DNA of 64,000 nt from Acidobacteriota bacterium. GTDB lineage: Bacteria > Acidobacteriota > UBA6911 > RPQK01 > JAJDTT01. Every line of letters begins with the position of its first letter. The first letter of the stretch is position 1. Below are positions 8,126 to 59,822 of the stretch, one piece after another. A program made the position numbers and the translations under genes. The DNA is taken from NCBI GenBank assembly GCA_965263035.1, contig OZ253580.1:5664001-5728000 (forward strand), in the 5' to 3' direction. Under the pieces are notes generated by a model. That model saw only the letters and a program-made list of their open reading frames with translations. It was not told the origin of the DNA and ran no database searches.

Positions 8126-8212
8126 TGGTCCCCGGCGCGGGATTCGAATCCACACGGCCTTTCGGCCACCGGATTTTAATTCCAGCGCGTCTGCCAATTC
8201 CGCCAGCCGGGG
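8126..8212 (-). tRNA. tRNA-Leu (TAA anticodon), 87 nt, encoded CCA
   Basis: CCCCGGCTGGCGGAATTGGCAGACGCGCTGGAATTAAAATCCGGTGGCCGAAAGGCCGTGTGGATTCGAATCCCGCGCCGGGGACCA; long variable arm. Confidence 0.9.
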
Positions 8213-36565: not shown

Positions 36566-38058
36566 CCACTCCCGCCAAGTCGTCAACAAGGCGTGGAGCT
36601 TCGCGCACCTGCTTCGCGACGACGGCCTTTCCTACATGGCCTACACGGAGCAGATCACGTTCCTGCTGTTCCTGAAGATGGCCCATCAGCGGACCCAACC
36701 GCCTTGGAATCGCCCCCCATCGTGCCTGCCGGATTCGACTGGCCGAGCCTGCTCGCCCGCGACGGCGAGGAGTTGGATGCCCACTACCGGCGCATCCTGA
36801 CGGAGCTTCCCAGACAGGGAGGGATGCTGGGGGAGATCTTCAAGAAGGCCCGTCAGGAGATCCAGAATCCGGCCACGCTGAAGCGCCTGATCGTCGACCT
36901 GATCGACCCCGAGGACTGGATGTCGATGCGCGCGGACGTGAAGGGGGACATCTACGAGGGCCTGCTGGCCAAGTCGACCCAGGAGTCGCCGAAGGGCGCG
37001 GGCCAGTACTTCACGCCCCGCGAACTGATCAAGGCCATCGTGGACTGCGTGCGGCCGGGTCCCGACGACACGGTCTGCGACCCCGCCTGCGGGACCGGCG
37101 GATTCCTCCTGGCCGCCCATGACTACGTGTCCGAGAGCACGGCAGCAGCTTGGATCCCGACCGGAAGTGCCATCTACGGCAGGACTTCGTGCGGGGTTGG
37201 GAGATCGTGCCCGCGACCGCCCGACTCTGCATCATGAACCTCTACCTGCACGGGATCGGCCCGGACGAGTCCCCGATCCGGTCGGGAGTCGACAGCCTGG
37301 CCAACGATCCCGGCGAGCGCTTCTCGATGGTGCTCACCAACCCCCCGTTCGGCAAGAAGAGCAGCGTCCGAATCGTGAACGAGGAGGGCAAACTGGAGGC
37401 GGAGTCCCACGCCTACGAGCGGCAGGACTTCTGGACCGGCACCAAGAACAAGCAACTGAACTTCCTCCAGCACGTGAAGACGCTGCTCAGGATGCACGGC
37501 GCCTGCGCCATTGTCGTGCCGGACAACGTCCTGTTCGAGGGTGGCGCAGGCGAGACCGTGAGGCGCAACCTGCTCCAAGCATTCGACGTGCACACCCTCC
37601 TCCGCCTCCCGACCGGGATCTTCTACGCCCAGGGCGTGAAGGCGAACGTCCTGTTCTTCGACGCCAGGCCCGCGCGCGAGAAGCCCTGGACGGAGCGGCT
37701 CTGGGTCTACGACCTACGCACGAACAGGCACTTCACGCTCAAGATGAAGCCGCTCCGGCGAGCGGATCTTGACGACTTCGTGGCCTGCTACCGGCCGGGC
37801 GAGCGCCACTTGAGAGAGCCGACGTGGAGCCCGGACAACGAGGGCGGCCGCTGGAGGGCGTTCGAGTACGACGAACTGGCCAAGCGGGACAAGCTGAACC
37901 TGGATCTCCTGTGGATCAGGGACAGGGCTCTGGAGGACAGTGAGAATCTCCCGGAGCCGGAAGTGCTGGCTGCCGAGATCGTGGAAGACCTACACGCCGC
38001 CTTGGAGGCGTTCCAAGGAATCGCCCAGGAACTGGAGTCGTCGGGAAATGCTGCATAG
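36555..38058 (+). pseudogene. hsdM: Type I R-M HsdM with two -1 frameshifts
   Basis: LRDDGLSY..Y.EQ; GAGQYFTPR, DPACGTGGFL; NPPFG; shifts at C6 run 36713-36718 and near 37135. Confidence 0.9.
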
Positions 38059-38100: not shown

Positions 38101-38122
38101 GGGGACAAGGATGTCCCCGCTC
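38101..38122. repeat. REP-like hairpin forming the 5' exon of the intron
   Basis: GGGGAC-AAGGAT-GTCCCC-GCTC|C; uninterrupted relatives at 56688 and 59800. Confidence 0.8.
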
Positions 38123-38752
38123 GTGCGCCCGACATGGGCTGTATCTAAGGGATGAAAGATCCCAAGGGAGGTGATGGGACCAACCCTAGCCGAACCGCAA
38201 GGCGTAGCCGCGAGGTGAAGCTGAAGGAAGCGGAAGGCAAACCCACGACCGCAGGAACACGAACCGGCAGTGAGGCCGGGTGCGGGCGGTGAGCTGGCGA
38301 GCAACAGCGAAACCCGAACCCCATCCAGACGCATCAGGTAGAGCCGGGCGGCCCGGGGGGAAAGATGCAGCACCTTACTCGGGGAGATCTCAAGGGTGAG
38401 AGCCTTTGAGAAGTCAGCAGAGGTCATAGTAGCGAAGAAGCCGGATAATGCCGGTGGAGCGAAGGACCGAAGGAGTCGGACTGGCCCTATGGTGGACTCG
38501 TCAGCGGGATCGCAACTACCTCCGAAAACGGGGCGGGGGGAGGCCCCTCGGACCCGGCATGGAAGGCCCACGGGTGGAGCCCGGCAAGCCGGAAGGGCGG
38601 AGATCAAGTCTCAGCGGCGGCGGAAACCGGAAAGAAAGGCCCTGTACGAGGCTCGAAAGAGCCTCGGGTGACTCCAACCGCCGGATACTGAAAACGGTAC
38701 GTCCGGTGGTGTGGGAGGGTGCGGGGGCGCAATCCCCTGCACTCGACCCGAT
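38123..38752 (+). ncRNA. Group IIC intron lacking a reverse-transcriptase ORF (630 nt)
   Basis: 5' GTGCG; GAGAAGTCAGCAGAGGTCATAGTA and AAGGACCGAA core motifs; domain V AACCGCCGGATACTGAAAACGGTACGTCCGGTGGTG (CGC triad); domain VI ending CCCGAT; only a 60-codon remnant (38489-38671) in domain IV. Confidence 0.9.
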
Positions 38753-38821
38753 CCAGGACGCGGCCATGTTTTTCTTGGAAGTGAGGTTCCGATTGAAGAT
38801 GGAAGTCCTGCCCGTCCCGAA

Positions 38822-56687: not shown

Positions 56688-56710
56688 GGGGACAAGAATG
56701 TCCCCCCTCC
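56688..56710. repeat. REP-like hairpin (GGAG-foot family)
   Basis: GGGGAC-AAGAAT-GTCCCC-CCTCC, identical to 59800-59822. Confidence 0.8.
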
Positions 56711-59707: not shown

Positions 59708-59822
59708 GGAGCGGCGACTTTCTAGTCGCCGACAGGGGGGCAGGGGGGACGGAGTCCCCACTCCGCGTAGCGTCTTCCAAGTTGGCGAAACGAAGAATGG
59801 GGGACAAGAATGTCCCCCCTCC
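59708..59822. repeat. Cluster of three REP-like hairpins
   Basis: GGAGCGGCGAC-TTTCTA-GTCGCCG; GGGGAC-GGA-GTCCCC-ACTCC; GGGGAC-AAGAAT-GTCCCC-CCTCC. Confidence 0.75.

Follow-up and report, generated by a model that had tools for sequence, protein, structure and literature searches.

Structure of the intron at the locus

The window (the whole stretch of 64,000 nt that was analyzed) belongs to a 6.2-Mb acidobacterial genome, here G000, which we compared with eight genomes of the same genus (G001 to G008). Downstream of an N-6 DNA methylase gene that is split over two frames lies a complete group II intron of 630 nt, GTGCG...GAT, without a reverse transcriptase (RT) gene, and its 5' exon ends in a short hairpin followed by GCTC (Table 1). 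Two Rfam models that cover the 5' part of the ribozyme match above their gathering thresholds, RF02001 with 85.5 bits (38204-38371) and RF01998 with 47.2 bits (38374-38467). The domain V/VI model RF00029 stays just under its gathering score of 40 with 38.9 bits (E 5.8e-6, 38676-38752), and six sister copies score 40.3-40.4 bits with the same model. The cmscan matches to group II intron models and the two termini agree with a preliminary description of this DNA, which had proposed a complete ribozyme of this length.

Domain V is identical in 23 of the 24 copies of the family, the remaining copy having one C-to-T change. The catalytic triad of domain V is CGC in this intron and not AGC, which is typical of group IIC. 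The conserved A of the Rfam consensus for domain VI has its counterpart at 38746, 7 nt from the 3' terminus, and we take this residue to be the branch point. The block of domain IV that is conserved in all forms is a candidate RT-binding region. The 60-codon remnant that the preliminary description had placed in domain IV had to be given up as an RT remnant: a 91-codon reading frame within the intron (38396-38671) matched no Pfam family, and alignment of the ORF-less with the ORF-bearing form revealed that only the last two codons and the stop of the RT gene are left.

Table 1. Features of the intron, its target site and related sequences in the window (positions of the window).
Feature	Position	Strand	Basis
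N-6 DNA methylase gene, upstream, split over two frames (36593-37237, 37150-38058)	36593-38058	+	Pfam
Target hairpin: stem GGGGAC 38101-38106, loop AAGGAT 38107-38112, stem GTCCCC 38113-38118	38101-38118	+	sequence
IBS1 GCTC, last 4 nt of 5' exon	38119-38122	+	GCTC before 24/24 copies in G000; covaries with EBS1
ORF-less group IIC intron (class assigned from the sister RT)	38123-38752	+	Rfam; ends defined from the empty orthologous loci of G002 and G003
Ribozyme 5' part, Rfam D1-D4 models RF02001 and RF01998	38204-38467	+	Rfam matches
EBS1 GAGC, in loop GCGAGCAA (38297-38304), closed by GCTG/CAGC	38299-38302	+	complementary to GCTC
Domain IV without ORF	38468-38675	+	alignments
Domain IV block conserved in all forms, 42 nt	38561-38602	+	alignments
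Hairpin CGAGGCTC-GAAA-GAGCCTCG, closes the deletion junction in domain IV	38647-38666	+	alignments
Domain V, CGC at the Rfam consensus AGC position	38678-38709	+	RF00029 alignment
Domain VI	38710-38752	+	RF00029 alignment
First base of 3' exon (C), candidate IBS3	38753	+	C in 23/24 copies, T in one
Unoccupied hairpin GGGGAC-AAGAAT-GTCCCC, then CCTC; mismatches the EBS1 of the window intron	56688-56709	+	sequence
Unoccupied main-family unit GGCGAC-TAGAAA-GTCGCC + GCTC, potential target	59709-59730	-	motif scan
Second unoccupied CCTC-type hairpin, same subfamily as 56688	59800-59821	+	sequence

Empty sites and a disrupted gene

Removal of the intron from the window joins GTCCCCGCTC to CCAGGAC, and exactly this sequence is present at the orthologous locus of G002 and G003; the empty site in G006 and G007 is 2 nt shorter. 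The hairpin site that the preliminary description had restored by deleting the intron is therefore found unoccupied in related genomes. A precise orthologous empty site was also identified for the copy at genome position 436206, which lies in unique coding DNA and interrupts, in antisense, a gene for a zinc alcohol dehydrogenase; six genomes of the genus have an intact version of this gene (342 aa). Judged from these empty sites, the insertions at both loci are derived. Insertion is not always harmless: of the earlier view that the REP family offers safe intergenic targets, the REP-like targeting was supported (see below), but the safety was not, given the interrupted alcohol dehydrogenase gene. 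A scan for reading frames across the joined flanks produced several candidates, of which only the antisense alcohol dehydrogenase case held; apparent sense-strand frames at 436206 and 1151210 were not supported.

Copies of the family and the RT-bearing sisters

BLASTN uncovered 24 insertions of the family in G000, 22 of them ORF-less and 2 RT-encoding. Nineteen ORF-less copies are intact and three are broken by IS or other mobile DNA. The intact 630-nt copies are 97-100% identical, lie at different loci with unrelated 3' flanks and represent 14 distinct sequences, five copies being identical. Since the copies sort into two haplotype groups plus mosaics, their similarity could partly reflect gene conversion and not new insertions. 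The deletion in the ORF-less form corresponds to nt 532-1757 of the 1848-nt form, and its junction is the same in 22/22 ORF-less copies; the spread appears to have happened after the ORF was lost. Both the shared deletion and the RT-encoding relative anticipated by the preliminary description are thus present, and the window intron is not a single dead copy.

The two full-length copies of 1848 nt (genome positions 529488-531335 and 2572796-2574643) differ at 6 of their 1848 nt, and both carry an uninterrupted ORF of 409 codons, including YADD. Pfam detected only RVT_1 and GIIM in the 409-aa RT, without an endonuclease domain. Its best PDB match is the GsI-IIC RT (E 1.6e-133); the chains 7uim, 5hhl and 5hhj, presumably the Eubacterium rectale and Roseburia intestinalis IIC RTs, gave E values of 2.6e-101 to 1.1e-82, and LtrA (E 8.5e-35) and 6me0 (E 1.2e-30) are both far behind the GsI-IIC RT. 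On the domains and PDB matches of this sister RT, the intron is assigned to class IIC.

The ORF-less and RT-bearing copies are 98.6% identical in D1-D3 and 96.2% identical in D5-D6. In domain IV, the ORF-less copies resemble the ORF-less copy of the sister species G001 (91%) more than the resident RT copies (73.8%), which argues against the origin of the ORF-less lineage by a simple recent deletion in a resident RT copy. Among the eight genomes of the genus, no copies of the family were found in G002, G006 and G007.

Target hairpins and the EBS1-IBS1 rule

A short hairpin (5-7 bp) followed by GCTC precedes all 24 copies of the family in G000, and a hairpin also lies upstream at 9/9 intron sites examined in G001, G003, G004 and G008. 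The preliminary description had placed the window intron 4 nt past GGGGAC-N6-GTCCCC and had suggested comparing the 5' exons of all copies. The offset is made up by GCTC, it is the same in the 24 insertions, and there are no unrelated T-run terminators at the copies. Most of the occupied hairpins are accounted for by one REP-like family, GGCGRC-AAGAAA-GYCGCC + GCTC, of which the GGGGAC hairpin of the window is a minor variant. The REP-like unit has 272 matches in the genome to its 22-nt core with up to 3 mismatches, and forms arrays at 28-29 nt spacing. The main-family motif occurs once in the window, against 0 expected from 100 shuffles. In addition, several copies have a longer repeat module in common in their 5' flanks, and two Y1_Tnp matches (39 and 36 bits) were detected in the genome, one of them adjoining a REP array.

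The EBS1 loop tetranucleotide GAGC is complementary to GCTC. It goes with GCTC at 24 sites in G000 and at 1 site in G004, and the alternative EBS1, GAGG, goes with CCTC sites in G001 (1), G003 (6) and G008 (1), so that the EBS1/IBS1 last-letter rule fits 33/33 sites across five genomes. Occupancy in G000 follows the same rule: among strict 6-bp/6-nt hairpins, 17/113 with GCTC are occupied vs 0/80 with CCTC (Fisher p 1.1e-4). A putative 4-bp IBS1-EBS1 pairing is supported by this natural covariation; upstream of IBS1 comes the hairpin arm, whose bases vary. The repeats at 56688 and 59800, which the preliminary description considered matches to the occupied site, do share its hairpin subfamily (GGGGGAC-AAGAAT-GTCCCCC) but have CCTC after the hairpin in place of GCTC, a difference that matters because it lies at the sole position deciding the pairing with the window intron. 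A C follows 23/24 occupied sites, and also 94/96 unoccupied GCTC hairpins.

Replication strand, neighboring genes and sequencing runs

The position of dnaA, 2.872 Mb, coincides with the GC-skew minimum. The sense strand of the intron is in the lagging-strand template in 20/24 copies (19/24 with the terminus at 5.5 Mb), and four copies have the opposite orientation. Lagging-template orientation was found for 14/17 occupied vs 31/96 unoccupied GCTC hairpins (p 2e-4). The methylase gene upstream of the window intron is co-oriented with it, and read-through from this gene could supply intron RNA. Across the 24 copies, crude and unreliable GC3-based calls give 11 co-oriented and 13 opposed upstream genes, and with this mixed orientation read-through transcription is putative.

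Contigs from two RNA libraries of one study, X15 and X16, contain an exact 38122/38753 joint between flanks that match G000 at about 99.6%. This joint may stem from an almost identical strain whose site is empty, or from DNA in the libraries, and need not be spliced RNA. A joint in X18 was rejected as splicing and assigned to a diverged empty site, given its 7 other letters and its flank identity of about 96%. The depth of intron to flank contigs is 1448/16.5 in X15 and 1082/7.4 in X16 vs about 19 (1946/100.8) in X1, a run whose library type is not on record; provided that X1 is DNA, the latter ratio agrees with the copy number. The X1 contigs reach 22 and 26 nt into the intron, less than the 31 nt required for bridging.

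Other intron families in the genome

Our analysis also uncovered a second ORF-less family in G000, of about 655 nt and RF02005 type, which lies inside the loops of the same REP on the other strand. Three of its copies are about 100% identical, and no cognate RT copy for it was found in G000. A second RT-bearing family, of the RF02003 class, has three intact copies and one split copy; BLAST between these introns and the second ORF-less family found nothing, and they were rejected as its parents.

Probable mobilization in trans and alternative explanations

With a probability of about 0.85, we interpret the window intron as one copy of a non-autonomous IIC retroelement mobilized in trans. Ribozyme RNA would be transcribed by read-through from neighboring genes, and the 409-aa RT/maturase of the two 1848-nt sister introns would bind and splice it, a binding that is not guaranteed, given the identity of only 73.8% between the ORF-less and the resident RT copies in domain IV. 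By the chemistry of established IIC introns, the RNP would reverse-splice into single-stranded DNA just 3' of a short hairpin. Site choice would depend on the hairpin itself, on the 4-bp pairing between EBS1 GAGC and IBS1 GCTC to which the covariation points, and probably on the C at +1. The RT without an endonuclease domain and the strand bias together suggest insertion at replication forks in the lagging-strand template, where nascent lagging-strand DNA could serve as primer. The REP-like family with GCTC offers about a hundred sites and would have let the element reach 22 copies vs 2 of the autonomous form.

The driver could be another enzyme, either from the other RT-bearing intron family of the genome or an RT lost since. 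Three further intact RVT_1 genes are present in the RF02003-class introns, the ORF-less domain IV differs by 26% from the resident IIC RT copies, and the second ORF-less family has near-identical copies without a cognate RT. On the other hand, the usual substrates of group II RTs are closely related ribozymes, and the close identity of D1-D3 and D5-D6 to the resident RT copies, the same EBS1 and kind of target site, and the 42-nt domain IV block kept in all forms point to the resident IIC RT, making a non-cognate driver improbable. Even less probable is that the copies are inert relics multiplied as DNA by segmental duplication, REP-mediated recombination or a REP transposase. The repeated DNA at the sites, the longer 5' repeat module, the two Y1_Tnp-like genes and the mosaic haplotypes, which are a sign of recombination between copies, would fit such an origin. 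It does not account for boundaries that are base-exact at 24/24 sites with unrelated 3' flanks, nor for the copy in unique coding DNA with its precise empty site, and the EBS1-IBS1 rule, its covariation and the replication-strand bias are unexpected from DNA duplication.

We give just as little credence to a domesticated element with a host function, e.g. a structured RNA or a splicing-dependent switch at gene ends. The intron-to-flank depth in X15 and X16, compared with that in X1, is a weak hint of RNA accumulation and would be consistent with such a role. Against it, sister species lack the intron at the same loci, three copies have been disrupted by IS or other mobile DNA and one destroys a gene, and three of the eight genomes of the genus (G002, G006 and G007) have no copies of the family.

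Mobilization in trans may be part of a wider pattern, to which, taken as a whole, we assign even odds: the REP-like hairpins of the genus would be shared targets of small ORF-less introns that act like bacterial SINEs. Under this joint reading, two unrelated intron classes would each have given rise to non-autonomous forms directed at a common REP, with the IIC family entering one strand 4 nt past the hairpin and the RF02005-type family entering the loop on the other strand. The IIC family would have lost its ORF at least three times independently, and its EBS1 would have switched between GAGC and GAGG, tracking the REP variants that carry GCTC or CCTC. One ORF-less lineage, with the domain IV common to G000 and G001, would have outlived speciation while its catalytic part stayed matched to the resident autonomous intron, and the second family would persist in G000 without a cognate RT copy.

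Comparison with known systems

The single well-studied expansion of ORF-less introns is that of a thermophilic cyanobacterium, Thermosynechococcus elongatus, whose TeI3 introns are mobilized by TeI4 RTs, a trans mobilization that was demonstrated experimentally (Mohr, Ghanem & Lambowitz 2010, PMC2882425). Both systems have many ORF-less copies (17 TeI3, 22 here) with one deletion break-point each, and the family of the window would be a REP-targeting IIC counterpart of TeI3. It differs from TeI3 in being of class IIC, in its acidobacterial host and in having nothing left of the ORF N-terminus. Its target is a hairpin plus 4 nt instead of long EBS/IBS pairings, and its sites are REP-like repeats instead of other introns or unique sites; it is also known from sequence alone.

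Canonical group IIC introns (e.g. GsI-IIC, B.h.I1, O.i.I1) insert after Rho-independent terminators (PMC4424553, PMC4748821). Our family resembles them in its RT, closest to the GsI-IIC RT and without an endonuclease domain, in its insertion a few nucleotides after a stem-loop, in its apparently short IBS1 and in the CGC of domain V. In contrast, it uses 6-bp REP-like hairpins followed by GCTC or CCTC and no T-run, and its dominant form has no ORF. Insertion of canonical IIC introns after terminators is reportedly also treated in Mohr 2018 and Robart 2007.

The group IIC-attC introns (PMC3001079) are likewise a IIC lineage, one that specializes in a single family of structured DNA repeats; these are attC recombination sites of integrons, whereas the sites here are chromosomal REP-like palindromes, with no integron context seen. 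That REPs are landing sites for mobile elements was described by Tobes & Pareja (2006, PMC1525189), whose study deals mainly with IS transposases and includes a group II intron of Pseudomonas putida KT2440 with 2/9 copies REP-associated. Here, 24/24 copies follow hairpin + GCTC, mostly of one REP-like family, and the pairing rule is defined. No paper on ORF-less IIC introns in REPs was found in the limited literature collection that was searched.

The family thus offers a IIC intron that expanded in its ORF-less form (22 vs 2 copies) and whose targeting rule is apparent from the genome itself. Occupied and unoccupied sites constitute a natural experiment, and the replication-strand bias fits the proposed priming mechanism. 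The system is tractable for studying the recruitment of an RT in trans by a minimal ribozyme, the reading of DNA hairpins by IIC introns and the mutual shaping of repeat families and retroelements. A hairpin-guided, retargetable element of 630 nt could also interest builders of gene-targeting tools.

We also detected more distant relatives, which are introns located after a hairpin and a T-run. The automated search resolved 5' ends at 24 of 80 loci with related RTs, and a second motif scan of 14 selected relative loci gave candidate 5' ends at 10.

A class IIC ribozyme and its RT-bearing sister copies

The preliminary description of the window reported a complete-looking 630-nt ribozyme lying 4 nt after a hairpin, and the sequence and the Rfam covariance models bear out all of this. 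The group II models RF02001 (85.5 bits) and RF01998 (47.2 bits) match the intron, and the domain V/VI model RF00029 scores 38.9 bits (E 5.8e-6), 1.1 bits below its gathering score; six sister copies score 40.3-40.4 bits, slightly above the threshold. The RF00029 alignment places CGC of domain V opposite the consensus AGC. In domain VI, the A located 7 nt before the intron end falls on the conserved A of the model, and we take it to be the branch point. The tetranucleotide GCTC directly separates the 3' arm of the hairpin from the intron start.

The same genome also holds two copies of the intron that encode a reverse transcriptase (RT). They are 1848 nt long, have 6 mismatches between them and carry an uninterrupted 409-codon ORF (intron nt 538-1767) with RVT_1 and GIIM as its only domains. 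The closest solved relative of this RT is the GsI-IIC RT (E 1.6e-133), followed by 7uim, 5hhl and 5hhj (E 2.6e-101 to 1.1e-82; annotated group II RT/maturase and 'retron-type' RTs), presumably the IIC RTs of Eubacterium rectale and Roseburia intestinalis. LtrA (8.5e-35) and 6me0 (1.2e-30), which we assume to be IIA and IIB RTs, are much weaker matches. Outside the genus, the nearest relatives are 61-72% identical and are labelled Acidobacteriota, Verrucomicrobiaceae or Bryobacterales, which makes an acidobacterial host probable. The RT matches, the location just downstream of a hairpin, the short IBS1 (the last 4 nt of the 5' exon) and the CGC triad together support assignment to class IIC.

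Positions of the features described (window coordinates unless marked as genome)
Feature	Position	Strand	Remark
ORF-less intron	38123-38752	+	starts GTGCG, ends GAT
Target hairpin	38101-38118	+	stem GGGGAC 38101-38106, loop AAGGAT, stem GTCCCC 38113-38118
RF02001 match	38204-38371
RF01998 match	38374-38467
RF00029 match	38676-38752
Presumed branch point	38746
EBS1 GAGC	38299-38302	+	complement of GCTC
EBS1 loop GCGAGCAA	38297-38304	+	closed by GCTG/CAGC
Open frame, 91 codons	38396-38671
Conserved 42-nt block	38561-38602		candidate RT-binding site
ORF-deletion hairpin	38647-38666		CGAGGCTC-GAAA-GAGCCTCG
CCTC-type hairpins	56688, 59800
Unoccupied GCTC-type unit	59709-59730	-	main REP-like family
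GGGGACTCCGTCCCCCCTGCCCCCCT module	59731-59760	-
N-6 DNA methylase gene	36593-38058	+	two frames overlapping at 37150-37237
tRNA gene	8129-8212	-	long variable arm
ORF-less copy in a gene	genome 436206-436835	-	L003:1501-2130 (extracted locus)
Broken ORF-less copies	genome 3067627-3070027, 3923178-3925592, 5180457-5185638
GGGGACTCCGTCCCCCCTGCCCCCCT module	upstream of genome 2447219, 4234212
Y1_Tnp-like match, 36 bits	genome 2482924-2483100	-	adjoins REP array and second-family copy
Y1_Tnp-like match, 39 bits	genome 3478135-3478365	+
Second family	genome 3066862-3067516	+	L026:736-1390 (extracted locus)
Second family, other copies	genome 680748, 2436403, 2482159, 3351616, 3743270, 6114886
Third family, intact	genome 984033, 5537681, 5842266
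Third family, interrupted	genome 5053672/5056300
Domain V/VI match, 52 bits	genome 340877-340952	-

Spread of the ORF-less form

BLASTN with the 630-nt query against the genome (G000), whose window occupies 5,664,001-5,728,000 of a single contig of 6,198,070 bp (62% G+C), returned 30 segments. They correspond to 19 full-length ORF-less copies (630-632 nt, 97.2-100% identical), two ORF-bearing and three interrupted ORF-less copies of two segments each, and one 51-nt fragment. Two of the broken copies are split, at intron nt 264/276 and 345/350, by an IS3-like element some 1.78 kb long, and the third by a 4.7-kb insert with serine recombinase and IS21-like genes, with loss of intron nt 121-264. 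The element is thus not a single copy, and the hairpin at the deletion junction is identical in 22/22 ORF-less copies. That so many unrelated loci have one break-point in common means that the loss of the ORF came before the spread of the element. The 19 intact copies comprise 14 distinct sequences, vary in 46 alignment columns and fall into two haplotype groups plus mosaics, among them the window copy; five ORF-less copies at separate loci are mutually identical.

Intron copies and EBS1-IBS1 types in the genus (G001-G008, other genomes of the genus)
Genome	ORF-less	ORF-bearing	EBS1 loop, 5' exon end	Remark
G000	22	2	GCGAGCAA, GCTC (24 sites)
G001	1	0	GCGAGGAA, CCTC (1 ORF-less)
G003	1	5	GCGAGGAA, CCTC (1 ORF-less, 5 ORF-bearing)
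G004	0	1	GCGAGCAA, GCTC (1 ORF-bearing)	one fragment in addition
G005				one diverged partial match, 77% over nt 298-630, and a 50-nt piece
G008	1		GCGAGGAA, CCTC (1 ORF-less)	many contig-end pieces; assembly fragmented, ORF-bearing count not resolved
G002, G006, G007	none found	none found		genome completeness 94-97%

Target sites and the pairing rule

All 24 insertions in G000 follow a short hairpin and GCTC, and the base after the intron is C in 23 of them and T in one. Most of the hairpins are units of one REP-like (repetitive extragenic palindromic) family, GGCGRC-AAGAAA-GYCGCC, of which the GGGGAC hairpin of the window is a minor variant. The 22-nt core of this REP has 272 matches in G000 at up to 3 mismatches, 18 of them occupied, and the units are often arrayed with 28-29-nt spacing. 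The more distant IIC relatives, at 24 loci with a placed 5' end, mostly follow a hairpin and a T-run, the classical terminator target.

The EBS1-IBS1 rule is obeyed at 33/33 sites examined in the genus, with a single base per side covarying. A strict scan of the REP-like family, limited to perfect 6-bp stems and 6-nt loops and leaving out 7 insertions with imperfect stems or other stem/loop geometry, found 17/113 GCTC hairpins occupied versus 0/80 CCTC hairpins (Fisher p = 1.1e-4). The two unoccupied repeats that had been matched to the restored window site do belong to its hairpin subfamily, but they are of the CCTC type and therefore fit the introns of the sister species and not the window intron.

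A conserved module (GGGGACTCCGTCCCCCCTGCCCCCCT...) with a second small hairpin stands in front of many REP units, so the REP may belong to a larger composite repeat. Two Y1_Tnp-like matches were also detected, and the first of them, to judge from its location beside a REP array and a copy of the second intron family, may be a REP-associated transposase.

Empty sites confirm the intron boundaries to the base at two loci. At the window locus, G002 and G003 carry GTCCCCGCTC-CCAGGAC, exactly the sequence obtained by removing the intron, and the empty site of G006 and G007 is shorter by 2 nt (G007 flanks 98% and 93% identical to those of the window). The second locus is the one non-REP site, where a copy follows GGCCATC-AGGTC-GATGGCC+GCTC and is inserted antisense into a zinc alcohol dehydrogenase gene; the orthologue (342 aa) is uninterrupted in G002, G003, G005, G006, G007 and G008, and the G007 DNA equals the G000 flanks joined. 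The intron can thus insert in a gene if the coding sequence mimics the hairpin+GCTC motif, so that REPs are its usual targets, as had been proposed, but do not guarantee safety. The methylase gene upstream of the window intron is split into two frames, either as a frameshifted pseudogene or through an assembly indel.

Repeated loss of the ORF

Alignment of the 630-nt and 1848-nt forms shows a gap that opens just 5' of the ATG and closes two codons short of the stop, where an 11-nt filler replaces the ORF and the flanks pair as a hairpin. The '60-codon remnant' of the RT reported in domain IV turns out to be an incidental open frame: the remaining 91-codon frame has no Pfam match and is located 5' of the point where the ORF used to start. 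The stem formerly enclosing the ORF is kept in all ORF-less forms, with compensatory changes. The four ORF-less forms of the genus each have a different junction, with the stem variant GAGGCTC...GAGCCTY common to those of G000 and G001, which implies at least three independent ORF deletions.

The ORF-less copy of G003 looks like a recent deletion derivative of its resident RT copies, to which it is 100% identical in domains D1-D3 and 98.8% in the 5' part of domain IV. The corresponding values for the G000 ORF-less form are 98.6% and 73.8% against the G000 RT copies, and 94.9% and 91.0% against the G001 ORF-less form. The G000 form is thus a mosaic. It probably represents an older non-autonomous lineage, in which recombination or template switching would have kept the catalytic part in step with that of the resident autonomous intron. 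Polymorphic positions 149, 210, 212 and 619/621 segregate in ORF-less and RT-bearing copies alike, in agreement with exchange between the two kinds. All forms have in common a conserved 42-nt block of domain IV, a candidate RT-binding site.

The closest parallel to the G000 element is Thermosynechococcus elongatus, which has 17 ORF-less copies with one break-point and 8 ORF-bearing ones, and where trans-mobilisation was shown by assay (PMC2882425). REPs are documented as targets mainly for IS elements, and a table in PMC1525189 places 2/9 copies of a Pseudomonas putida group II intron at REPs. A full-text search of the accessible literature, limited to main texts, found no description of ORF-less IIC introns at REPs. 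Non-autonomous introns that depend on a driver in trans are known in principle; new are the IIC class, a REP target with a readable 4-bp code, a natural specificity switch and recurrent ORF loss. The genus is promising for studying small ribozymes that parasitise both repeats and autonomous introns.

Orientation relative to replication

Cumulative GC skew is lowest near 2.86 Mb, where dnaA is located (2,872,067), and is highest on a plateau at 5.5-5.84 Mb. In 20/24 copies the sense strand is the leading-strand sequence, which places the insertion in the lagging-strand template (19/24 with the terminus set at 5.5 Mb); the window copy itself lies in the ambiguous terminus region. The lagging-template orientation was found for 14/17 occupied strict hairpins versus 31/96 unoccupied GCTC hairpins (p = 2e-4), that is, an occupancy of 14/45 in this orientation and 3/68 in the other, indicating that the bias does not merely mirror REP orientation. 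Endonuclease-less group II introns reverse splice into single-stranded DNA at the fork and use the nascent lagging strand as primer, and the bias is consistent with this route. A strand bias of insertions is described for bacterial class C introns by Miura et al. 2022 (PMC8919778).

Evidence from sequencing runs

Contigs of two RNA libraries from one study (X15 and X16) join 38122 to 38753, omitting the 630 nt with ends GT..AT, and show 3 mismatches to the window over about 840 flank positions. So exact a joint comes either from spliced RNA or from a near-identical strain with an empty-site allele, and either origin would mean recent activity. The intron-to-flank ratio of contig depths, a weak measure, is 88 in X15, 146 in X16 and about 19 (1946/100.8) in X1, a run with no recorded library type. 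X1 showed no contig joining the flanks; its contigs enter the intron from the flanks by 22 and 26 nt, less than the 31 nt needed for a bridge. A joint from another study (X18, 38120-38759), which holds 7 other letters and has flanks about 96% identical, is a diverged empty site and was rejected as splicing. Loose contig ends at 38101 in X15 and X16 are preceded by the flank of the hairpin+GCTC site at genome 4,836,067, unoccupied in G000, which gives a mere hint of an insertion polymorphism, with this site occupied in the sampled population.

Other group II introns and minor observations

A second, unrelated ORF-less group II family (about 655 nt, 7 copies, 92-100% identity; RF02005 165 bits, RF00029 36.9 bits) has 6/7 copies inside the loop of the same REP on the opposite strand, GGCGRC-T/intron/TTCTT-GTCGCC. 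No ORF-bearing copy of it was found in G000, but such copies are present in G002, G004, G005 and G007. A third family (RF02003) has its own RT, with RVT_1 matches, and might serve as another source of RT. The highest-scoring domain V/VI match in G000 has no RT match nearby and no D1-D4 model in the 3.5 kb examined. The window also contains a tRNA gene (Rfam tRNA, 41.6 bits).
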